From: a virus
Lineage: Duplodnaviria > Heunggongvirae > Uroviricota > Caudoviricetes
Direction: 5' to 3' (one strand)
Virus record (IMG/VR): IMGVR_UViG_2711768004_000013
DNA: 45,436 bases
The notes under the pieces are model-generated. The model was not told the origin of the DNA, ran no database searches, and worked only from the letters and a program-made list of their open reading frames with translations. Positions within the stretch are counted from its first letter, which is position 1. Each line of letters begins with the position of its first letter. The translations under genes were made by a program, and so were the position numbers. Positions 1,029 through 43,934 of the stretch are shown piece after piece.

Positions 1029-1202
1029 ATGGAAGATCAAAAAGCAACCAAGCCACAGGTTAAGTTCGACACAATGAAAGCATTCGCAGGTATGGGTGCT
1101 GCTGTTGAAGTTCTGATGAAGGCTGCTCCTAATGCGTTCACTCACGCTACTGTCTCTGGTAAAGAGCAGCAGGGTAAGCTTCGTCGTCGCAAAGCAGCAT
1201 GA
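1029..1202 (+). CDS. small hypothetical protein (57 aa)
   Basis: ATG at 1029 preceded by GGAG about 8 nt upstream; ends just before a strong intrinsic terminator; below the ORF-track length cutoff. Confidence 0.3.
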   Translation: MEDQKATKPQVKFDTMKAFAGMGAAVEVLMKAAPNAFTHATVSGKEQQGKLRRRKAA

Positions 1203-1222
1203 TCATAGCTGGTGCTTTTTGA

Positions 1223-1248
1223 AAACCCGCCTTTAGGCGGGTTTTTTC
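1223..1248. terminator. bidirectional rho-independent terminator
   Basis: AAAACCCGCC-TTTA-GGCGGGTTTTTT: GC stem flanked by an A-run and a T-run, placed between the convergent plus-strand module and the minus-strand PrtN-like gene. Confidence 0.6.
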
Positions 1249-1249
1249 T

Positions 1250-1531
1250 TTAGTGATGTTCTTTGCCCTTCTGTTTGCCTGTTCTGACCTGTTCCCACTC
1301 GATACGTCCTTCTTCTCGTCTTTTGTCTATGTATTCCGCAAGATCCTGAATATTGATGCAACGTTTTGCTTTTTGTGATGTACCGATGCGATATGTAGGT
1401 ACAGGCAACTTACAAGCGTTTGCTTTTGCTTCTGCTGTGGCTGGACTCATACCAAAGTATTTTTGACTAACTGCTGAGAGTTCAATGTTTGGGGTATTGA
1501 ATTCAGCCATCAGTAAAAACAAGGTATTCAT
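1250..1531 (-). CDS. PrtN-like (pyocin activator family) phage transcriptional regulator
   Basis: 93-aa ORF starting MNTLFLLMAEF... with ...DLAEYIDKRREEG, resembling PrtN-family regulators as I recall them. Confidence 0.65.
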   Translation of the reverse strand: MNTLFLLMAEFNTPNIELSAVSQKYFGMSPATAEAKANACKLPVPTYRIGTSQKAKRCINIQDLAEYIDKRREEGRIEWEQVRTGKQKGKEHH

Positions 1532-1567
1532 ATCATTTCTCCATCATAACCGGCTGCACCCGGTGAG

Positions 1568-2350
1568 TTACTTATTCATTTCAATAATATTATTTTCTAT
1601 CATTGATTTATTTAAAACCAAAGAAGGAGCAAGATGGTTGTCTATTTTAAACAATGCATAACTTTTAAACTGTTGGTGATATCCGTAACTAATAAGGATG
1701 CTAGAAAAATCTCTTAATTCATCTTCTTTTAAAAAATTAAAATGAAATGGGTTGTCACCATTTATGAACAATGAAACATCTATTATGCAGTATTTCTCTC
1801 CGTTGTCATTTGCATAGAAAAAAATATAAGACATTCTGTTTGTTAAGACAATGCCATTAAATTTTCTTATGTCTGTAGCTATTTTGTTTTCCATGTTTGG
1901 TGCTACATATTTATTTTCAGAAATACATTTAATTTCATCTCCAGATGTCGTGATTATATAAAAATGAAACTTATCAGAAATATCTAACTTAACTACGCCA
2001 TCATTATTGTAAAGGCTGCTAAATTTTGGTGGTTCAACTTTTAAAGAATCATAGTTCTTTAAAAGAAGAGGGGAGTCAAATTTAATAACTTGTAGTATCC
2101 CTTTACCTTCAACCTCCATATTGATTGAAGATATAGCAATTGCATTATCTCTTTTATTATTCAGGATTATGGTTGATATATGCATGTCATATATTCTACT
2201 TGCATTTGCTGAATACGACACTGTCACCTTTTTTGATATTTTTTGCACGCCAAAATATATAGTGAAGGCAGCGGCAAGAATAGATAAGAATTTAATGTCA
2301 AATAAGGACCATAGCCACATTAGTTGCTCAATTGCTTCAGAGTTAATCAT
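1568..2350 (-). CDS. membrane-anchored hypothetical protein (AT-rich moron); start ambiguous (in-frame ATGs up to 2383; the 2401 codon is TTG)
   Basis: ORF 1568..2401; single N-terminal hydrophobic helix (LMWLWSLFDIKFLSILAAAFTIYFGV) followed by about 230 aa rich in N/K/I/D; strongly AT-rich versus flanking genes; separated from the upstream operon by a terminator. Confidence 0.5.
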   Translation of the reverse strand: MINSEAIEQLMWLWSLFDIKFLSILAAAFTIYFGVQKISKKVTVSYSANASRIYDMHISTIILNNKRDNAIAISSINMEVEGKGILQVIKFDSPLLLKNYDSLKVEPPKFSSLYNNDGVVKLDISDKFHFYIITTSGDEIKCISENKYVAPNMENKIATDIRKFNGIVLTNRMSYIFFYANDNGEKYCIIDVSLFINGDNPFHFNFLKEDELRDFSSILISYGYHQQFKSYALFKIDNHLAPSLVLNKSMIENNIIEMNK

Positions 2351-2504
2351 TTGCTTTACCATTATCGCTGTAATACAACACATGTGTGTATATATACGCA
2401 ATGCAATTATTTTGCAAGTGCTTCATTTACTATCAATAGCTACGTCACGTTATTGTTTAATGGTTCTTTATAGGGGCGGCAATAGTTAAAATTATCGCTT
2501 CCGT

Positions 2505-2526
2505 AAATGCCCCCGCAGGGGCATTT
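2505..2526. terminator. intrinsic terminator between the early-left operon and the AT-rich moron
   Basis: AAATGCCCC-CGCA-GGGGCATTT: 7-bp GC stem with A and T runs on both sides. Confidence 0.5.
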
Positions 2527-2538
2527 GCAGTAATGAAA

Positions 2539-3363
2539 TCAGGCGGTGAAAGTACCAATAAAGGTTTCTACTTTGCTGTCTTTGAATTTCTCAACAAGCA
2601 GATCACGAAATTCGTTAGCCATTTCTTCCTGTACCGCTTCCAGCTGAATAATGCGCAGAACCAGTACAGGACGATCGCCAGTGATAATGCTGAGGCGTAA
2701 TTTAAACGGACGTTCTTTCAGACCTTCAAACGGAACGCATTTAAATTCAAATGCCACTGGCATAATGTCTTTGGTCTTCGCTTCGACAGACTCCATCAGG
2801 GAGCGTTTGCCGCTGAAGTCATTATCTTCAAAATCAGCGGTCTGGTTCGCTTCAATTGTGATTTTACGGATCGCCGCAGCCGCTTTGGTTGCCTGAATGG
2901 CGTCACCATTAGCATCAAAGCCCACAAGGTAGTCGGCCCAGTCTTCAATCCATTCTGCCAGTGACTTCTGGGAGTTACGCTCGCCATTAACAGACAACAG
3001 AGCAGAGAACGGAGCTGTCTTTTTCAGTTTGAGAGTGGCGGTGTTATCTGCGTGACCTGGTTCATCAATAGTACCCAGGTTAAGAACACTGACGGCACGC
3101 ATATTATCAGCATCGATAAAGCAGCGGGTGCCTTCATCTGCAAGATCTTTAGAATAACGAGTAAAGTCATCGATGCTGGCAGTGGAAAGCGCACCACGGA
3201 AACGGAAACGATTTAAATTTAATTTTTCCAGATCATGAATGCGGAAATTCTCAGGCAATGCCACAGCATCGGCACCAATCTTACTGATAATTTCATTAAC
3301 ACCCTGAGCAGAAATAAGGGCATGGATTTGATTAATTGCGGTTGCGTCTAAGTTCTGAGACAT
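2539..3363 (-). CDS. conserved phage early protein (possibly DUF2303/YfdQ-like)
   Basis: 274-aa ORF with a GTGAGGA Shine-Dalgarno upstream; protein-like composition; the family assignment is from memory only. Confidence 0.55.
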
Positions 3364-3790: not shown

Positions 3791-3838
3791 TTTTGCTGCT
3801 CCTAATCATATCGACCCTGCAAGGTCGGTTGGTTTCTC

Positions 3839-3940
3839 CACAAAACAGAGAAGAACACCTGCGGTGGCAGCCGCCCGGATGGATTTGGTTATGAGCCCGT
3901 CGTCCGGTGATGCTCTTCTCTGTTTTGTAAAAAGAGCGGT
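3839..3940 (-). promoter_or_regulatory. nut-like element: boxA-like CGCTCTTTTTA followed by a large hairpin with 15-bp perfect arms
   Basis: Minus strand reads CGCTCTTTTTAC, then ACAAAACAGAGAAGA ... about 60 nt ... TCTTCTCTGTTTTGT; lies in the leader between the putative PL and the first early-left gene. Confidence 0.3.
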
Positions 3941-4411
3941 ACCAGCCGGAAGCAAGTGTACAAACTGGTACCGCCAAAGCAGTGGCTGTTGTGGTGACCG
4001 GTGCTGATCTCCGGCTTGCGGTTATTTCAGACTCTCACGGGCGTTTAATTGCCCCGCCGAACAGCTCTTTTCCGCATTAGCTGCAATGTCTTTCGCGCAT
4101 CAGCCTGCGCATTCACCACAACGCTGAGAGCACTTAGCCAGTTACGGCACCACACTTTGTCGCGGTTCCATAAATGTCCTCATCGTTGCACCCTGGTCTC
4201 TTCCCAGGCGTCAAACCGAATCGCCACGCTGGTTAGGCGTCTTATCAGCATCATCATTGACTTGCACATTCCGGCTACCTGGTTTGTTTGCCCGAGCAAG
4301 GAGTGGATTGTCCCCTTTAACGTCCCCAGACCGCTAACGACGCATGTGCCATACGCCGTGTTACAACCAAATTTTGTTTAATCTTGCCTGTGCTGTGTTT
4401 CTTTTAGATAC

Positions 4412-4439
4412 ATTATGTATCCCAAAGGTACATTGTCAA
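4412..4439 (-). promoter_or_regulatory. putative leftward early promoter PL with overlapping operator OL
   Basis: Minus strand TTGACA, 17 nt, CATAAT; the spacer contains ATGTATCCCAAAGGTACAT, closely resembling the OR-side site ATGTATACCGGAGGTACAT. Confidence 0.45.
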
Positions 4440-4441
4440 GT

Positions 4442-4466
4442 ATAAAAAAACCTGCCGAAGCAGGTT
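4442..4466 (-). terminator. intrinsic terminator downstream of the repressor gene
   Basis: Minus strand AACCTGC-TTCG-GCAGGTT followed by a T-run. Confidence 0.5.
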
Positions 4467-4477
4467 ATAAATATTGA

Positions 4478-5152
4478 TTAGGCCTTTATTATGTATCTTC
4501 TTGGTTTTCCTGAGAAAATCACTGTACCAATTATAGAGCAATTACCGTTAATCTTAATGTAAGGCTCAGGCCAGTTTGGGTTTAATGCTTTGAGATAACG
4601 CTGTGTTCCATCTTCTATCAACCGCTTGAAGGTGGTTTCGCCTGTATCGTGCATCAATGCAATAACGTCGTCACCGTGGCAGGCAGGGACTTCAGGATCA
4701 ACAAAAATCATGTCTCCCGGGCGGTACTCATCAATCATTGAATCACCAATCACCCGCAAGATATAAGTCATTTCGCCACAGGGTACAGGGCAGGGATAAG
4801 TTTCTGCTGTGCTCAAATCAACCTCAGAATAGCCAACTTCTTTCCATGCTCCGGCCTGTACCCATGATATGACAGGGACTAACGTTATTTGTTTGTTAGT
4901 GATTGAAACGTCAGGTTTTTTTGTGATGTTCGTTGTCTGGTGTTCTTGATCAAGCCATCCGACAGGCAGGTCGAAACATTTTTCGATGTGCCGTGCCATG
5001 CTGTCACCGATATTTTTAGTTGCACCATCTCCCATAAACCTGCTGGTCTGGGTTGGCTCGCGATCAATCATGGTGGCAAAGGAAGAATTCCCGCCAACAC
5101 CATCTCTCAGTTTTCTGGCGTTAGACCGCCGGATGTCATGGACTGTTTTCAT
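4478..5152 (-). CDS. CI-like prophage repressor (N-terminal HTH, C-terminal S24/LexA-type peptidase domain)
   Basis: 224-aa ORF; C-terminal VIGDSM serine motif and downstream FKRL lysine typical of S24 autopeptidases; divergent from a Cro-like gene with palindromic operators between them. Confidence 0.85.
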   Translation of the reverse strand: MKTVHDIRRSNARKLRDGVGGNSSFATMIDREPTQTSRFMGDGATKNIGDSMARHIEKCFDLPVGWLDQEHQTTNITKKPDVSITNKQITLVPVISWVQAGAWKEVGYSEVDLSTAETYPCPVPCGEMTYILRVIGDSMIDEYRPGDMIFVDPEVPACHGDDVIALMHDTGETTFKRLIEDGTQRYLKALNPNWPEPYIKINGNCSIIGTVIFSGKPRRYIIKA

Positions 5153-5168
5153 AAAGAAATTAAAACCT

Positions 5169-5239
5169 TTGTACCGATAAGGTACAAGTATCTTGAAGGT
5201 TCATCTCAATCATGTAATATGTATACCGGAGGTACATAT
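5169..5239. promoter_or_regulatory. OR region: two palindromic operators and putative PR
   Basis: TTGTACCGATAAGGTACAA (5169-5187) and ATATGTATACCGGAGGTACATAT (5217-5239); between them TTGAAG, 16 nt, TAATAT forms a rightward promoter overlapping the second operator. Confidence 0.55.
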
Positions 5240-5242
5240 TGT

Positions 5243-5443
5243 ATGAAAGCGTATTGGGACTCTTTAACCAAAGAACAGCAGGGTGAGTTGGCCGGAAAAG
5301 TTGGCTCAACACCAGGCTACTTACGGCTGGTTTTCAATGGTTATAAAAAAGCCAGTTTTGTGCTGGCTAAAAAACTTGAGCAATGCACGTCAGGTGCAAT
5401 TACGAAATCTGACTTAAGACCGGATATCTATCCGAAAGATTAA
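5243..5443 (+). CDS. Cro-like small HTH regulator
   Basis: 66-aa ORF with GGAGG 9 nt upstream, immediately right of the operators and divergent from the repressor. Confidence 0.7.
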   Translation: MKAYWDSLTKEQQGELAGKVGSTPGYLRLVFNGYKKASFVLAKKLEQCTSGAITKSDLRPDIYPKD

Positions 5444-5474
5444 CAGAACACCTTCAATTTTTAACCACAGAACG

Positions 5475-6038
5475 ATGAGGCTAACCGTGGGTAAGCATCA
5501 CTGGAAAGTAGAAAAACAGCCTGAGTGGTACGTGAAAGCTGTCAGAAAAACTATCGCGGCGTTGCCGGGGGGTTACGCTGAAGCTGCTGAGTGGCTGGAT
5601 GTAACAGAGAACGCTTTATTCAACCGCCTTCGTGCAGATGGCGATCAGATTTTCCCGCTGGGATGGGCAATGATTTTACAGCGCGCGGCTGGCACTCACT
5701 ACATTGCGGATGCTGTCGCACAGTCTGCTGGTGGGGTGTTTGTATCGCTTCCTGAAATTGAGGAAGTAGAGAACGCCGATATAAACCAGCGCCTGCTGGA
5801 AGTCATCGAACAGATCGGGAGTTACTCAAAGCAGATTCGTTCGGCAATCGAAGATGGGGTAGTGGAGCCACACGAGCAGACAGCAATTAATGATGAGTTG
5901 TATCTGTCAATTTCGAAGCTCCAGGAGCATGCAGCACTGGTCTACAAAATCTTTTGCGCTCCAGAAAAGAGTGACGCCCGCGAGTGTGCAGCTCCGGGCG
6001 TCGTGGCGTTTTGTGTCTGTGGAGAAACTAACGCATGA
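5475..6038 (+). CDS. hypothetical early regulatory protein in the CII / YdaT position (possible GTG start at 5487)
   Basis: 187-aa ORF directly after cro; GAGG lies 5 nt before the GTG at 5487, none before the ATG at 5475. Confidence 0.45.
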   Translation: MRLTVGKHHWKVEKQPEWYVKAVRKTIAALPGGYAEAAEWLDVTENALFNRLRADGDQIFPLGWAMILQRAAGTHYIADAVAQSAGGVFVSLPEIEEVENADINQRLLEVIEQIGSYSKQIRSAIEDGVVEPHEQTAINDELYLSISKLQEHAALVYKIFCAPEKSDARECAAPGVVAFCVCGETNA

Positions 6039-8406: not shown

Positions 8407-9059
8407 TGAGTAATAAATATTGCCAGGCGCTGGTGGAGCTGCGGAACAAACCAGCCCATGAACTGAAGGAAGTGGGCGATCAGTGGCGCACGCCGGATAA
8501 CATTTTCTGGGGAATTAACACCCTGTTTGGCCCGTTTGTTCTGGATCTGTTCACTGATGGTGATAACGCCAAATGTGCCGCTTATTACACTGCGGAAGAC
8601 AACGCGCTGGCGCATGACTGGTCTGAACGTCTTGCGGAGCTTAAAGGTGCTGCCTTTGGTAATCCCCCGTACAGCCGCGCCAGTCAGCATGAAGGGCAAT
8701 ACATCACCGGCATGCGTTACATCATGAAACATGCCAGTGCCATGCGTGATAAGGGCGGACGCTATGTTTTCCTGATCAAAGCTGCCACCAGCGAAGTGTG
8801 GTGGCCGGAAGATGCAGATCATATTGCTTTTATTCGCGGGCGTATTGGTTTTGAACTGCCTGCCTGGTTTATCCCGAAGGACGAGAAGCAGGTGCCGACA
8901 GGCGCTTTCTTCGCTGGTGCTATTGCTGTTTTCGACAAGACCTGGAAGGGACCGGCAATCAGCTACATCGGGCGCGATGAACTTGAGGCATGTGGTGAGG
9001 CGTTTCTGGCGCAGGTTCGCCAGCAGGCGGAAAAACTGGTCAGGGAGATGGCGGCATGA
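8406..9059 (+). CDS. phage DNA N6-adenine methyltransferase (Dam-like, orphan)
   Basis: 217 aa with an NPPY catalytic motif (AAFGNPPYSR); TAATG start/stop overlap with the upstream gene; no adjacent restriction endonuclease candidate. Confidence 0.75.
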   Translation: MSNKYCQALVELRNKPAHELKEVGDQWRTPDNIFWGINTLFGPFVLDLFTDGDNAKCAAYYTAEDNALAHDWSERLAELKGAAFGNPPYSRASQHEGQYITGMRYIMKHASAMRDKGGRYVFLIKAATSEVWWPEDADHIAFIRGRIGFELPAWFIPKDEKQVPTGAFFAGAIAVFDKTWKGPAISYIGRDELEACGEAFLAQVRQQAEKLVREMAA

Positions 9060-14914: not shown

Positions 14915-15323
14915 NNNNNNNNNNNNNNNNNNNNNNNNNNNNNNNNNNNNNNNNNNNNNNNNNNNNNNNNNNNNNNNNNNNNNNNNNNNNNNNNNNNNNN
15001 NNNNNNNNNNNNNNNNNNNNNNNNNNNNNNNNNNNNNNNNNNNNNNNNNNNNNNNNNNNNNNNNNNNNNNNNNNNNNNNNNNNNNNNNNNNNNNNNNNNN
15101 NNNNNNNNNNNNNNNNNNNNNNNNNNNNNNNNNNNNNNNNNNNNNNNNNNNNNNNNNNNNNNNNNNNNNNNNNNNNNNNNNNNNNNNNNNNNNNNNNNNN
15201 NNNNNNNNNNNNNNNNNNNNNNNNNNNNNNNNNNNNNNNNNNNNNNNNNNNNNNNNNNNNNNNNNNNNNNNNNNNNNNNNNNNNNNNNNNNNNNNNNNNN
15301 NNNNNNNNNNNNNNNNNNNNNNN
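14915..15323. other. assembly gap (N-run)
   Basis: 409 consecutive N. Confidence 0.95.
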
Positions 15324-32122: not shown

Positions 32123-35100
32123 ATGGGTAAAGGCAGCAGTAAGGGGCATACCCCGCGCGAAGCAAAGGACAACCTGAAGTCCACGCAGTTGCTGAGTGTG
32201 ATCGATACCATCAGCGAAGGGCCGGTTGAAGGTCCGGTGGATGGATTAAAAAGCGTGCTGCTGAACAGTACACCGGTGCTGGACAGTGAGGGGAATACCA
32301 ACATCTCTGGTGTCACGGTGGTGTTCCGGGCAGGTGAGCAGGAACAGACACCGCCGGAGGGATTTGAATCATCAGGTTCCGAGACGGTACTGGGTACGGA
32401 AGTGAAATACGACACGCCGATCACCCGGACCATCACGTCGGCAAACATTGACCGTCTGCGCTTTACCTTCGGTGTGCAGGCACTGGTGGAAACCACCTCA
32501 AAGGGGGACAGGAATCCGTCGGAAGTCCGCCTGCTGGTTCAGATACAACGTAATGGTGGCTGGGTGACGGAAAAAGACATCACCATTAAGGGCAAAACCA
32601 CCTCGCAGTATCTGGCCTCGGTGGTGGTGGGTAACCTGCCGCCGCGCCCGTTCAATATACGGATGCGCAGGATGACGCCGGACAGCACCACAGACCAGCT
32701 GCAGAACAAAACGCTCTGGTCGTCATACACCGAAATCATCGATGTGAAACAGTGCTACCCGAACACGGCACTGGTCGGCGTGCAGGTGGATTCGGAGCAG
32801 TTCGGCAGCCAGCAGGTGAGCCGTAATTATCATCTGCGCGGGCGCATTCTGCAGGTGCCGTCGAGCTATAACCCGCAGACGCGGCAATACAGCGGTATCT
32901 GGGACGGAACGTTTAAGCCAGCATACAGCAACAACATGGCCTGGTGTCTGTGGGATATGCTGACCCATCCGCGCTACGGCATGGGGAAACGTCTTGGTGC
33001 GGCGGATGTGGACAAATGGGCGCTGTANNNNNNNNNNNNNNNNNNNNNNNNNNNNNNNNNNNNNNNNNNNNNNNNNNNNNNNNNNNNNNNNNNNNNNNNN
33101 NNNNNNNNNNNNNNNNNNNNNNNNNNNNNNNNNNNNNNNNNNNNNNNNNNNNNNNNNNNNNNNNNNNNNNNNNNNNNNNNNNNNNNNNNNNNNNNNNNNN
33201 NNNNNNNNNNNNNNNNNNNNNNNNNNNNNNNNNNNNNNNNNNNNNNNNNNNNNNNNNNNNNNNNNNNNNNNNNNNNNNNNNNNNNNNNNNNNNNNNNNNN
33301 NNNNNNNNNNNNNNNNNNNNNNNNNNNNNNNNNNNNNNNNNNNNNNNNNNNNNNNNNNNNNNNNNNNNNNNNNNNNNNNNNNNCATTGCCCGTTACGGTC
33401 GTAACGTCACGAAGATGGATGCTTTTGGCTGTACCAGCCGGGGGCAGGCACACCGCGCCGGGCTGTGGCTGATTAAAACAGAACTGCTGGAAACGCAGAC
33501 CGTGGACTTCAGCGTGGGTGCCGAAGGGCTTCGCCATGTACCGGGCGATGTCATTGAAATCTGCGATGATGACTATGCCGGTATCCGCACCGGCGGGCGC
33601 GTGCTGGCGGTAAACAGCCAGACCCGGACGCTGACGCTCGACCGTGAAATCACGCTGCCATCTTCCGGCACCACGCTGATAAGCCTGGTTGACGGGCAGG
33701 GGAGTCCGGTCAGCGTGGAGGTTCAGTCCGTCACCGACGGCGTGAAGGTGAAAGTGAGCCGTGTTCCTGACGGCGTTGCTGAATACAGCGTATGGGGGCT
33801 GAAGCTGCCGACGCTGCGCCAGCGCCTGTTCCGCTGCGTGAGTATCCGTGAGAACGACGACGGCACGTATGCCATCACTGCCGTGCAGCATGTACCGGAA
33901 AAAGAGGCCATCGTGGATAACGGGGCGCACTTTGACGGCGACCAGAGCGGCACGGTAAATGGTGTCACGCCGCCAGCGGTGCAGCACCTGACCGCAGAAG
34001 TCACCGCAGACAGCGGGGAATACCAGGTGCTGGCCCGCTGGGACACGCCGAAGGTGGTGAAGGGCGTGAGCTTCCTGCTTCGCCTGACCGTGGCAGCGGA
34101 TGACGGCCGTGAGCGGCTGGTCAGCACGGCCCGGACGACGGAAACCACTTACCGCTTCACACAACTGGCTCTGGGGAACTACAGGCTGACAGTCCGGGCA
34201 GTAAATGCGTGGGGGCAGCAGGGCGATCCGGCGTCGGTATCGTTCCGGATTGCCGCACCGGCAGCGCCGTCGCGGATTGAGCTGACGCCGGGCTATTTTC
34301 AGATAACCGCCACGCCGCATCTTGCGGTTTATGACCCGACGGTACAGTTTGAGTTCTGGTTCTCGGAAAAACGGATTGCGGATATCAGGCAGGTTGAAAC
34401 CACAGCCCGCTACCTTGGCACGGGGCTGTACTGGATAGCCGCCAGTATCAATATTAAGCCGGGCCATGATTATTACTTTTATATCCGCAGTGTGAACACC
34501 GTCGGCAAATCAGCATTCGTGGAGGCTGTCGGTCGGGCGAGCGATGATGCGGAAGGTTACCTGGATTTTTTCAAAGGCCAGATAACCGAATCCCATCTCG
34601 GCCAGGAGCTGCTGGAAAAAGTCGACCTGACGGAGGATAACGCCAGCAGACTGGAGGAGTTTTCGAAAGAGTGGAAGGACGCCAACGATAAGTGGAATGC
34701 CATGTGGGGCGTCAAAATTGAGCAGACCAAAGACGGCAAACATTATGTCGCGGGTATTGGCCTCAGCATGGAGGACACGGAGGAAGGCAAACTGAGCCAG
34801 TTTCTGGTTGCCGCTAACCGTATCGCGTTTATTGACCCGGCAAACGGGAATGAAACGCCGATGTTTGTGGCGCAGGGCAACCAGATATTCATGAATGACG
34901 TGTTCCTGAAACGCCTGACGGCTCCCACCATTACCAGCGGTGGAAATCCGCCGGCATTTTCCCTGACACCAGACGGAAAGCTGACCGCTAAAAATGCGGA
35001 TATCAGCGGTAATGTGAATGCAAATTCAGGGACGCTCAACAATGTCACGATTAACCAGAACTGTACGATTAAGGGCATGCTGGAGGCGACCCAGGTCAGA

Positions 35101-40320: not shown

Positions 40321-40390
40321 NNNNNNNNNNNNNNNNNNNNNNNNNNNNNNNNNNNNNNNNNNNNNNNNNNNNNNNNNNNNNNNNNNNNNN
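40321..40390. other. assembly gap (N-run)
   Basis: 70 consecutive N. Confidence 0.95.
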
Positions 40391-40405: not shown

Positions 40406-41776
40406 CTATGATATCCCTGAAATGTCCTCTTCAAGCTCTTTTACTGATTTCGCAATTTTAAATTTAAATTTTCTCTCTATTTCACTATTGCTAAGTTTTT
40501 TTTCATTCTCTTTCCCTATCCACATAGAAACAATTTCTCGTTTCTGAGATATATGTAGATTGTCAAAGTTAGGTATGTATTTAAAAGTCTCCGCTCTACC
40601 CCTGCGGAGTTCATAGAAAGTTTTAATCAAAGACTTTGGTTTTATTTCTGATGAAAGGCCGAATCGGCGGATAAGATTATTGATCGTATGATTAACAGCT
40701 CGAAGTTGAGCTGTTGACGTTATTTGTGAGAAGTACGATACCCATCCCAATCGTTTACCTTCAAACACACATCCCGTAATTCTAAGATTTAGTTTCCACT
40801 GACAATATGCAACAGCTCGTTCTTTATCGCGCTTATTTTTAGCTTGTAGTAGAGCGTGTCTATATGCAGTAAAAATTTTTGCTAAGGATGACTCAAATCT
40901 AAGAATGCTCTCATGTTTTATCAATAATTCTCGATTTTTTATGTGGTAGCCCAAAAAGTTGAAACTTTCATCCAAGCTGCCTACTTTGGATTTTGAGTTC
41001 TCTTCATTTAATGGATGTGGGTTTAAATTTAATGATTGAAGCTTATCAATGATATGAGAAGCTATTTTTGTTGCTTGATATTTTGGTGTTAAAATAAGAA
41101 TGTCATCAACGTATCGCATGTACCATATGTCATGCATTTTATTGATTTCATCATCGAAATTAGATAGTGATATTTCAGCTAAAATGTTTGATATCGCTAA
41201 TCCCTGAGGTACTCCTCTGGTATTATTAGGGATACCTTTGCTTCCTGTGGTTCCACTTACAGTAGGCACGATTAATGATGATGTTATTAACTGTCTAATT
41301 TCTTTTTTTCTAATTTTATTTTTTATTGCATTAATTATCAATTTATGTTCAATTGAAGGATAGAAACTTTTAAGATCTATTTTTGCATATTCAGCATATA
41401 GACTGTTGTTTAATGCTTCTTTCAATGAGTCAATTACTGTATGTGGTAGTTTTAATCTGGACTTAGGATATATTTCCGTAAGGCATTCACAGAGAGCTCT
41501 AAGAGTAATTCTGTCCCTAGCAGTTGGTATGGAAATCTGTCTGGGTGTAGAGTTAGCGCCTTTAGATATTAATTTTTCTTTATATGCTGTAAATTTGTAA
41601 TTGCCAGAATTAACCTTTTCAAAAATGAAAGTGATCTCATTTTTTATTGTCAAATCAAGTTTTGATGGGCGAATCCGATCTATGCCAATCGCTCCTGATT
41701 CTTTGATTTTTTCAGAGTATACTTTTAGAAGATTTTTTTTCGAGAATGACTTTTTAAAAATTCTGCTTGCAGTCAT
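40406..41776 (-). CDS. reverse transcriptase (retron / group-II-like catalytic motifs; probable defence-associated RT)
   Basis: 456 aa from the ATG at 41776 (ORF track extends to a TTG at 41782); motifs in order: GIDRIRP, RQISIPTARDR, IDLKSFYPSI (motif A), GVPQGLAISNILAEI (motif B), YMRYVDDILIL (motif C, YVDD), FNFLGYHI (motif E), RITG in the thumb; AT-rich; overlaps the upstream membrane-protein gene by 23 nt. Confidence 0.8.
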   Translation of the reverse strand: MTASRIFKKSFSKKNLLKVYSEKIKESGAIGIDRIRPSKLDLTIKNEITFIFEKVNSGNYKFTAYKEKLISKGANSTPRQISIPTARDRITLRALCECLTEIYPKSRLKLPHTVIDSLKEALNNSLYAEYAKIDLKSFYPSIEHKLIINAIKNKIRKKEIRQLITSSLIVPTVSGTTGSKGIPNNTRGVPQGLAISNILAEISLSNFDDEINKMHDIWYMRYVDDILILTPKYQATKIASHIIDKLQSLNLNPHPLNEENSKSKVGSLDESFNFLGYHIKNRELLIKHESILRFESSLAKIFTAYRHALLQAKNKRDKERAVAYCQWKLNLRITGCVFEGKRLGWVSYFSQITSTAQLRAVNHTINNLIRRFGLSSEIKPKSLIKTFYELRRGRAETFKYIPNFDNLHISQKREIVSMWIGKENEKKLSNSEIERKFKFKIAKSVKELEEDISGIS

Positions 41777-42305
41777 AGTCAATCCAAAGATATATTAATG
41801 GGAGTATATAAAGTGCGGCAGTAATAAATATTCGAAGTAATATCCATAAAATAACAATTATTTTTTCTTTTTGTGTGGGGATCCTCGTCTTAAGTCCAAC
41901 TTGAGTTACCCTTGAAATTTTATCATCTATGTCACGGTGATTCTCAACCTCATTGAGCAAATTAAAATATTTTTCTTTCTGTTCAAGAGATAACTGTTGA
42001 CTGGTGGTAATGTCAAAATAGAGTCGCTGTAGTGCAATATAATTCCTTCTCATGGCTATTGCTCGACCACGAAAATCTAGGTTAGATACGATCAGAGAAA
42101 TACCCAGTAGAGCCACTGAAAGTATCGCCGCAACGACATCTGTATTATCTCCTAGAACCTTTGGAAATCGCAACGTTACAATTGAAAGTACCGCACTCAA
42201 TATAGCATACCAAACGAGGATAAATTGAGAGTGTTTTTCAAGCCATTCTAGTCGATGGTGCGCTTGGATACGTGCTTTATATGTAAACCAAATATTGTCA
42301 TGCAT
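41754..42305 (-). CDS. small multi-TM membrane protein (2TM / SLATT-like), putative effector of the RT system
   Basis: 183 aa; two adjacent hydrophobic helices near the N-terminus, a predicted helical soluble stretch, and a C-terminal hydrophobic helix; AAGGA 6 nt before the ATG at 42305. Confidence 0.6.
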   Translation of the reverse strand: MHDNIWFTYKARIQAHHRLEWLEKHSQFILVWYAILSAVLSIVTLRFPKVLGDNTDVVAAILSVALLGISLIVSNLDFRGRAIAMRRNYIALQRLYFDITTSQQLSLEQKEKYFNLLNEVENHRDIDDKISRVTQVGLKTRIPTQKEKIIVILWILLRIFITAALYILPLIYLWIDYDCKQNF

Positions 42306-42836: not shown

Positions 42837-43934
42837 TCAAGAGGTCTTATTTCTGCTCCTTTGGAGTTCTTCAAAACGATTATGTAAAGATTTCGGATAC
42901 AGTTCGGTATATACCTGCCATAGCACGTTTAATGAACGATGCCCTGTAACCTGAGCGACTTCCTCAATACTAAAACCAGCCTCAAATAAGCGACTTGCCC
43001 CTTCTCTACGCAAATCATGGTATCTCAGATCTTTAATACCTAATTTGCTTCTTACCCTCTGAAATCCTGCGGTAACAGAAGTGCTGTTATATGGAAAAAT
43101 GAATTCTGATTTTTTGGGTTGTCGCTGGACGATATCCCAGGCTTCCCCAAGCAAGGCAACTTTCATATGGTTGCCTTCCTTTTTACGTGGATCTTTCCTG
43201 TCTCTTACTAGTATAGATTTTTGTTCCTGGTCGAGATCTTCCCATCGTAACCGGCATACTTCTCCGATTCGCATACAGGACCACACAGAAAATTTGAGGA
43301 TATCAACGAACGGAATTTTTGAGCATTTATGAGTAGATCGTTGTTGAAGGCCTTCAATGAGCATGTTCAGTTCATCAGATGCTGGTCTACGATTACGACG
43401 GTTTGATTTACCAATCAAACCGAGTTTAAGTAGATATGGACGAGCGCTTTTCGCCGGGTTTGATGTGTAATTGATTCCGTATACAGGTTTTGCCGCATCC
43501 AGAACACTGCCAAGATAACTAACATCGTGGCTGACTGTTGCTGGGCCTGCACCAGCGTTGTTTCTTAGCCTGCAATGTTCAATTACGTCATTTTCTGTCA
43601 GTTCAGATAGTTTGATCGCGGAGATGTCACTATCCATAAGCAGTTCCAGCACATATCTTTTAGTACGGCCTGCTTTACCTCCGGCATTTGGGTCATTTAA
43701 ATATTTGTGTAGTAAGTCACGGACTGTAAGTCCGTCAACAGCATTTGATGATGGAATGCCATATAGATCTAATTCCATCACTTTCTGTGCGCCCCATGTT
43801 TTGGCATGAGCATGTTTAGGGAATGTTTTGCTTTCCCTGTAAGTGATAACACCTTTTTCTTTGATAATCACATTACAGCGATAGCGTGGTGTGCCATCGG
43901 ATTTTAGTCGTTTCTCTATGTTATAGTACGCCAT
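42837..43934 (-). CDS. int: tyrosine integrase (dusA-associated type)
   Basis: 365 aa; C-terminal catalytic residues in HDLRREGASRLF, VTGHRS and LWQVYTE; immediately adjacent to dusA. Confidence 0.9.
   Translation of the reverse strand: MAYYNIEKRLKSDGTPRYRCNVIIKEKGVITYRESKTFPKHAHAKTWGAQKVMELDLYGIPSSNAVDGLTVRDLLHKYLNDPNAGGKAGRTKRYVLELLMDSDISAIKLSELTENDVIEHCRLRNNAGAGPATVSHDVSYLGSVLDAAKPVYGINYTSNPAKSARPYLLKLGLIGKSNRRNRRPASDELNMLIEGLQQRSTHKCSKIPFVDILKFSVWSCMRIGEVCRLRWEDLDQEQKSILVRDRKDPRKKEGNHMKVALLGEAWDIVQRQPKKSEFIFPYNSTSVTAGFQRVRSKLGIKDLRYHDLRREGASRLFEAGFSIEEVAQVTGHRSLNVLWQVYTELYPKSLHNRFEELQRSRNKTS

Follow-up and report, generated by a model that had tools for sequence, protein, structure and literature searches.

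What is the role of a strikingly AT-rich gene that lies between the excisionase gene and the early-left operon of a lambdoid prophage? We addressed this question for the minus-strand gene at 1568-2350 of the IMG/VR record IMGVR_UViG_2711768004_000013, a stretch of 45,436 nucleotides that is called the window below and represents a complete mEp460-like lambdoid prophage, with zur on one side and dusA on the other. AT-rich morons of unknown function are common in prophages, and the observation itself is ordinary. Comparison with related phages identifies the gene, together with about 140 nt of its own 5' region, as a self-contained accessory cassette that has replaced the usual early-left 'ea' genes. 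As judged from profile searches and structure models, the encoded protein belongs to a family that is large, strongly constrained, confidently folded, free of domain annotation and missing from the defence catalogues through PADLOC-DB 2.0. We propose that the product is a putative stand-alone, cytoplasm-facing, membrane-tethered anti-phage protein of the superinfection-exclusion or abortive-infection kind, a reading to which we give about an even chance. The cassette and its borders comprise the following features.

1568-2350, minus strand: coding sequence of a 260-residue single-pass membrane protein, from the open reading frame (ORF) and its translation; stop codon at 1568-1570
2351-2488, minus strand: AT-rich 5' region travelling with the gene; homology to cassette-free phages restarts only at about 2489
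1564-2488, no strand assigned: AT-rich replacement cassette of 925 bp, GC 0.298; its limits are where similarity to mEp460-like, SfV-like and Stx phages breaks off
1250-1531, minus strand: PrtN-family excisionase-like gene (xis), directly downstream of the AT-rich gene (PF11112, E 3e-23; phrog_1300 excisionase)
2539-3363, minus strand: yfdQ (DUF2303), upstream of the cassette and the last of the conserved early-left genes (PF10065, E 8e-93; RefSeq)

The reading frame starts with the ATG at 2350 and has its 3' end at 1568. This ATG was preferred over an upstream TTG because the homologues likewise begin with M-[ILY]-N. RefSeq annotation of E. coli O25b:H4 places WP_047654657.1 on the same interval, with the label "hypothetical protein" only. 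The gene has a GC content of 0.290, and no other 783-nt stretch of the window goes lower (mean 0.503, sd 0.066, z = -3.2), which bears out the claim of an earlier note on this DNA that it is far more AT-rich than the flanking phage genes. Two further low-GC dips (about 14.4-15.2 kb and 32.8-33.6 kb) fall on masked N runs. Such runs occupy 14915-15323, 33028-33383 and 40321-40390, and they account for the apparent dips and for the splitting of the host-specificity J gene into two entries of the ORF list.

A megablast search of 50,697 phage records with window positions 1200-2560 yielded matches only to query positions 1-364 (1200-1563) and 1290-1361 (2489-2560). Because the matches end at about 1563 and restart at about 2489, the block 1564-2488 is a discrete cassette. 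In mEp460 and Lys8385Vzw the gap between xis and yfdQ is about 3.5 kb and holds exonuclease, DUF551, ea22-like and HD hydrolase genes. The upstream gene in this slot ends at the equivalent of window position 1568, indicating a gene-border replacement of the kind typical of lambdoid mosaicism. In one respect the locus resembles a moron as defined by Juhala and Hendrix, an inserted gene with a promoter and a terminator of its own: it is a discrete insertion or replacement of atypical composition between phage genes, with breaks at about 1563 and 2489 and a GC content of 0.30 against 0.50. The full block was found in 99 of 5,426 complete E. coli genomes (about 2%) at 98.9-100% identity, and at least one of its flanks in 2,748 of them; the carriers include clinical ST131-type O25b:H4 and avian pathogenic strains. 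The horizontal acquisition that the earlier note suggested is upheld by this accessory distribution and by the other genes that fill the slot in mEp460 and Lys8385Vzw, and the xis-yfdQ junction of mEp460-like prophages emerges as a cargo-exchange point. One of the 99 copies, in E. coli E89 (NZ_CP121157.1), is broken by an IS1X2 insertion somewhere within 1200-2560.

Is the gene peculiar to this prophage type? A word-indexed search recovered 11 clusters, all enterobacterial. An exhaustive profile search revealed 221 representatives at 50% identity, 141 of them at E up to 1e-10, nearly all with a length of 240-265 residues. A degenerate DNA pattern for the NK[KR]D...PLxLK motifs, run on viral and genome collections, added 42 DNA stretches, most of which were confirmed by the family hidden Markov model (HMM), resulting in 53 confirmed member loci in total. 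The hosts are spread across Proteobacteria and include E. coli, Citrobacter, Klebsiella, Raoultella, Pseudomonas, Psychrobacter, Acinetobacter, Aeromonas, Pantoea and Buttiauxella, in addition to a Burkholderiales and a Syntrophobacteraceae metagenome-assembled genome (MAG). In 28 of 28 contexts examined the family gene (GC 0.26-0.43) lies below its flanks, by -0.06 to -0.29; the Aeromonas member has a GC content of 0.33 against flanks of 0.62, and in Pseudomonas the gene is likewise AT-rich relative to its surroundings. A protein-level search of the 50,697 deposited phage genomes found no encoded homologue, which argues against a core phage gene. The earlier note had named homologues with core structural or replication roles as evidence against its own proposal; the members do not fit that description, as they occupy unrelated positions in prophages, satellites, plasmids and defence islands.

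The genomic surroundings were surveyed in about 28 contexts, as counts of neighbours and not as a genome-wide enrichment statistic. Members lie beside xis/int in lambdoid prophages and in Citrobacter islands carrying P4-type primase genes. In P2-like prophages of Pseudomonas, distant members directly adjoin the portal gene gpQ and are preceded by a STAND-like ATPase gene; at a further locus (L036), sequence similarity indicates the same arrangement of neighbours. The gpA-gpQ interval of P2 is a defence hotspot, as is psu-int of P4 (Rousset et al. 2022, PMC9122126). Other members are found in podovirus-like prophages, satellites or islands, chromosomal defence islands, and non-mobilisable Acinetobacter plasmids of 11-21 kb, where the neighbour is mazEF in the 11-kb case and an AAA-family ATPase gene in the 21-kb case. 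Genes of defence systems that directly adjoin members are those for IetA and IetS (E 1e-143 and 4e-290), for the reverse transcriptase (RT) and NDT of a type II-A retron (E 1e-106 and 9e-59), for an AbiLi-like and a STAND-like ATPase, and for type I HsdMSR. RmrA and a methyl-directed restriction endonuclease are also among the neighbours, and six neighbouring genes among the 28 contexts encode phage integrases. Recurrent defence neighbours together with mobile-element hotspots, the signature of a defence-island association, are thus present in this sample.

No neighbour is conserved across the contexts, which indicates a one-gene unit. A conserved two-gene system was considered and rejected, as the STAND-like ATPase of Pseudomonas, a 477-residue protein of Citrobacter and a 427-residue protein of Acinetobacter, each encoded upstream of a member, are mutually unrelated. 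The Pseudomonas protein is a 455-residue STAND-like P-loop ATPase (AAA_16/NB-ARC, Walker A motif GDRGIGKS) encoded directly upstream on the plus strand (L014, 7589-8959; L015, 7584-8951), with just weak matches to the PADLOC candidates PDC-S59 and PDC-S27. The 477-residue protein is encoded about 550 bp upstream of the family gene on the plus strand of the Citrobacter islands L007-L010 (6015-7448), in four element backgrounds; it has no Pfam or PADLOC match and may be a second cargo gene of the same hotspot. The 427-residue Cys-rich protein (CRFCF...CDECDECNEHF) is encoded at 4653-5936 on the plus strand of L061, the 11-kb, mazEF-carrying Acinetobacter chinensis plasmid p5SAAc573, 68 nt upstream of the family member, and is unrelated to the upstream genes in Pseudomonas and Citrobacter.

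A defence function is also consistent with the company kept in the window itself. On the minus strand at 40406-42305 the same prophage holds a UG17-class reverse transcriptase (458 residues, PADLOC RT_UG17, E 1e-158) and an RT-associated SLATT membrane protein (183 residues, E 1.5e-56), a DRT-type defence pair with a tail-fibre assembly gene on one side and dinI/int on the other. Its GC content of 0.32-0.37 makes it the sole other stretch of the window that is nearly as AT-rich as the gene at 1568-2350. The one-gene cassette, the AT-richness in every host, the mobile carriage, the hotspots and the defence neighbours together match the pattern from which defence genes are commonly predicted, and favour the defence reading.

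What kind of protein does the gene encode? Hydropathy, charge counts and AlphaFold modelling revealed three parts.

2243-2317, minus strand: N-terminal membrane helix (about residues 12-36), from hydropathy and charge counts; AlphaFold helix 4-38
1925-2227, minus strand: Ig-like beta-sandwich domain (residues 42-142) with the motifs N65-K-[KR]-D, P94-L-x-L-K98-x-x-[ED], S111 and C142
1574-1885, minus strand: C-terminal alpha/beta domain (residues 156-259), with a predicted local distance difference test (pLDDT) score of 93-98 in AlphaFold

Hydropathy peaks at about residues 13-36, the sole hydrophobic segment of the protein, in agreement with the single N-terminal transmembrane helix described earlier. 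The N/K/I/D-rich composition reported at the same time was also recovered in essence, I, S, N, K and L being abundant in the protein. Averaged over 80 family members, the 15 residues that precede the hydrophobic core include 0.7 K/R and 1.7 D/E, and the 15 residues that follow it 2.6 K/R and 0.4 D/E, with an excess of K/R on the C-terminal side in 71 of the 80. From this charge asymmetry we infer, by the positive-inside rule, an N-out/C-in topology, in which the acidic N tail (residues 1-11) is predicted outside the cytoplasm and the large domain would face the cytoplasm.

The AlphaFold model improved from a pLDDT of 80.4 and a predicted template modelling (pTM) score of 0.66 with an 11-sequence alignment to a pLDDT of 93.8 and a pTM of 0.82 with an 80-sequence alignment, and both models share the same secondary structure. 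Helix 4-38 is followed by nine strands (42-141), a poorly ordered linker (145-152) and a beta-beta-beta-beta-alpha-alpha-beta-beta-alpha domain (156-259). The fold, which the earlier note had called unknown, can therefore be described more closely as an Ig-like beta-sandwich plus a small alpha/beta domain, both confidently modelled; the alpha/beta domain has no recognisable relative. The best conserved positions are Y32, F33, K37, N65, [KR]67, D68, P94, K98, [ED]101, S111, C142, Y179 and N205, among which K37, N65, P94, S111, C142 and Y179 are invariant or nearly so. Conservation is higher in the membrane and juxtamembrane segment than in much of the soluble part, suggesting that this segment is probably more than an anchor.

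Homology searches placed the protein in one curated family. It matches phrog_14996 (PHROGs v4, unknown function) with E 2.3e-178, residues 1-260 aligning to profile positions 1-260; this family holds only the close enterobacterial members and gives no functional information. Pfam-A yielded nothing above the curated threshold (best Ig_TMEM131L_3, 16.2 bits against a cut-off of 28) and no family common to the 80 members, and NCBIfam gave no match for the 260-residue protein. No PDB relative was detected by sequence with either the single protein or the 80-member profile, and none of the 5,027 models of PADLOC-DB 2.0.0 matched the window protein at E up to 1. Fold searches with Foldseek and against BFVD were run with the first, 11-sequence model (pLDDT 80.4); the BFVD search returned nothing significant, and the C-terminal alpha/beta domain had no specific match in PDB or BFVD. 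The top Foldseek hit in PDB, to an archaeal pilin or archaellin, was rejected, as it reflects the succession of a hydrophobic helix and a sandwich and not a class III signal peptide.

How could such a protein act? The predicted cytoplasmic orientation and the lack of an enzyme-like domain suggest a design of a sensor plus a membrane helix at the inner face of the membrane. The mode of action that we infer is as follows. The product would cross the inner membrane once and expose a short acidic N tail outside, and about 220 residues, the Ig-like beta-sandwich packed on the small alpha/beta domain, would face the cytoplasm. This cytoplasmic module may recognise a component of the incoming or replicating phage, such as proteins that form the genome-entry apparatus. 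In response, the conserved helix in and next to the membrane might hinder the passage of the genome, or assemble with itself and so damage the membrane; this effector step is a conjecture. The earlier note had suggested a lysogenic-conversion or exclusion gene. Exclusion or defence gains from IetAS, the retron, the AbiLi-like ATPase, type I restriction-modification and the P2 hotspot, whereas a soluble domain predicted in the cytoplasm speaks against exclusion of the receptor-masking, surface-conversion type.

Does the cassette carry its own transcription signals? The earlier note had placed the gene between two terminators, insulated from the early-left operon. The two hairpins concerned are both real and far more stable than shuffled controls.

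2505-2526, no strand assigned: GC-rich stem-loop on the 3' side of yfdQ (fold energy -19.4 kcal/mol, z -3.4)
1221-1248, no strand assigned: hairpin terminator common to the convergent units; plus-strand call with 11 pairs and a T run

The stem-loop at 2505-2526 is followed on the strand of the AT-rich gene by ACGGAAGC, with no U tract, and was not called on either strand in the terminator scan. By these sequence criteria it is not a canonical intrinsic terminator. It lies inside a segment with 95.8% identity to SfV, SfIV and Stx2c phages, from which the AT-rich gene is missing; because it is conserved there, it is part of the yfdQ module rather than of the cassette. The hairpin of the second element (1221-1246; -19.0 kcal/mol on the plus strand, -16.2 on the minus strand) makes a strong plus-strand terminator, closing the convergent Panacea operon with UUUUUU. 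It is weaker on the minus strand, which carries the AT-rich gene and xis; there the hairpin is followed only by UUUUC (tail UUUUCAAAAA). The claim of two terminators is therefore weak and right only in part, as one hairpin lacks a U tract and is part of the yfdQ module and the other acts mainly on the plus strand.

The scan called no terminator between the stop of the AT-rich gene (1568) and the start of xis (1531), so that the two genes share a 3' end. Upstream of the gene, weak sigma-70-like hexamers occur as TTGATA-16-CAAAAT at 2436-2409 and TACACA-18-GATAAT at 2390-2361, and promoter-like hexamers in the region are not above chance (6 found against 7.7 expected in shuffles). About 110 nt of the 5' region can be aligned between the E. 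coli gene and its Citrobacter orthologues, and the upstream neighbours are unrelated. This conservation despite unrelated neighbours suggests that the gene brings along a leader or regulatory region of its own. The insulation is supported only in part. In no fewer than three independent genomic contexts, a short GC-rich stem-loop (e.g. CCTCCCTCATAATGAGGGGGG) also precedes the ATG of the family gene by 30-45 nt, at L016 (about 8955-8975), L019, L026, L034, L053 and L055. As no room for a promoter is left between this stem-loop and the gene, it may be a leader or attenuator element.

The wider setting of the prophage bears on how the gene would be expressed. Leftwards from pL, the minus strand carries the cI-like repressor gene, yfdP, yfdQ, the AT-rich gene and the PrtN-family excisionase gene, whose counterpart in mEp460 carries an excisionase annotation.

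4478-5152, minus strand: cI-like repressor, the first of the minus-strand genes leftwards from pL
42837-43934: integrase, right end of the prophage

The interval 3792-4477 between yfdP and the cI-like repressor gene, about 690 bp with a GC content of 0.52-0.55 and no RefSeq gene, is the presumed site of pL and its operators; it includes a 110-residue ORF on the plus strand (4049-4381). At the left end of the prophage, a Panacea-domain gene pair lies on the plus strand. A Panacea/SocA-domain protein (1-573, PF13274, E 2e-18) overlaps by 4 nt a 139-residue ORF (570-989, phrog_19071) with no Pfam or PADLOC match, and in sequence the two look like a PanA-type antitoxin-toxin pair. A conserved 57-residue ORF (1029-1202, phrog_2741) lies 3' of this pair.

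Several observations weigh against an anti-phage function. Association with defence genes is seen in roughly a quarter of the distinct contexts, and some loci adjoin plain housekeeping genes (FdhD, Asd, a major facilitator superfamily (MFS) transporter). Against PADLOC-DB 2.0.0, the 80 members gave just two isolated, chance-level hits (E 0.0016 and 0.0099), and no catalytic or pore-forming domain is recognisable in the protein. The N-out/C-in topology is predicted from the positive-inside rule only. The accession is absent from the searchable papers and the DefensePredictor supplements, and the searchable literature holds no experiment or publication tying any member to phage resistance; HepS (PMC13043305), considered from the literature, is unrelated. 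The chance-level promoter hexamers belong to the same side, as does the orientation of the gene with the repressed pL operon. In addition, the homologue of Klebsiella and Raoultella prophages lies within early-right, replication or nin-like (early lytic) operons, and together with the pL co-orientation this means that the gene could serve the lytic cycle of the phage itself.

Such a phage-serving early gene would be transcribed from pL (pR elsewhere) in lytic growth or induction and act on the host membrane for the phage, for example in host takeover, counter-defence or an exclusion limited to the lytic cycle. Besides the Klebsiella and Raoultella sites, its orientation shared with yfdP-yfdQ-xis, the likely read-through of a yfdQ-gene hairpin that has no U tract and the hexamer counts all point this way. 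We nevertheless regard it as unlikely, because homologues occur outside phages, on small plasmids and at chromosomal loci by type I restriction-modification and a retron, and the deposited phages, which are propagating, sequenced ones, encode none. The gene also keeps no conserved position relative to any phage function, and its orthologues bring their own conserved 5' region.

The constant carriage on mobile elements, with some members on small non-mobilisable plasmids by mazEF or an AAA-family ATPase gene, raises the question of whether the protein stabilises its element as a membrane-active addiction or toxin-type factor, or by other selfish maintenance, and not as anti-phage immunity. The conserved single membrane helix would fit, and the prophage has a Panacea-type pair at its left end. 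There is no conserved small neighbour as a possible antitoxin; 260 residues with two well-folded soluble domains are unlike small hydrophobic toxins, and the gene is intact and near-identical in 99 E. coli genomes, which leaves addiction a slim prospect. A lysogenic-conversion factor that alters host envelope physiology or virulence, unrelated to phages, would suit a membrane-located product whose gene is AT-rich, as foreign DNA likely to be under H-NS control, and occurs in avian pathogenic as well as clinical ST131-type O25b:H4 strains, but is improbable given the predicted cytoplasmic domain, the family's presence in environmental taxa (Psychrobacter, the Syntrophobacteraceae MAG, Burkholderiales, Aeromonas) and neighbours that are defence and mobility genes instead of virulence genes.

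If the anti-phage reading is true, the gene would be a compact (260-residue), partner-free immune gene on prophages, satellites and plasmids across Proteobacteria, with a product of confident yet unclassified fold that would be a second membrane-tethered, cytoplasm-facing guard of the point of phage genome entry, without a recognisable enzyme domain. As about 2% of the complete genomes of E. coli have the gene, with ST131-type and avian pathogenic strains among them, it could then affect the host range of phage therapy. Even if the function is not defence, the family is large, well conserved and free of domain annotation, and deserves a name.

How does this protein compare with known systems? 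P22 SieA and HK97 gp15 are small membrane proteins that temperate phages encode in accessory 'moron' genes, often close to int or to the repressor gene; their expression benefits the lysogen, and they block infection at its membrane stage. The lactococcal Sie2009-type protein is a further superinfection-exclusion membrane protein of prophages. Kinship with P22 SieA, P22 SieB and HK97 gp15 was rejected, with hhalign probabilities of 0.5%, 0.2% and 0.1%, respectively. The architectures also differ: HK97 gp15 has 62 residues and P22 SieA 164 residues in a multi-pass arrangement, whereas the protein described here has 260 residues, a single pass and a large folded domain predicted in the cytoplasm, and its family also occurs outside prophages. 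Like the cargo of the P2 gpA-gpQ and P4 psu-int hotspots, distant members lie by gpQ in Pseudomonas and close ones by the integrase of Citrobacter islands. Unlike that cargo, the family matches no catalogued system in PADLOC-DB 2.0, and the slot in the window is a lambdoid one, xis-yfdQ.

A parallel in layout is SNIPE, a membrane-bound nuclease defence protein with DUF4041 and GIY-YIG domains whose N-out/C-in topology was experimentally shown (bioRxiv 10.1101/2025.11.03.685801). Similar to SNIPE, the present protein is the product of a single gene and has one N-terminal membrane helix; its predicted N-out/C-in topology would hold the large domains at the inner face, where phage genomes enter. 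Unlike SNIPE, it has no DUF4041 or GIY-YIG domain (no Pfam match), but an Ig-like sandwich and an alpha/beta domain without a recognisable enzymatic domain. As a tentative extension, in which we place clearly less than even confidence, the family may be an undescribed, widespread one-protein system, in which the conserved helix with a non-enzymatic cytoplasmic module would detect genome-entry or early phage proteins at the inner face and jam entry or disrupt the membrane by self-assembly, as a non-nuclease counterpart of the spatial self/non-self logic of SNIPE.

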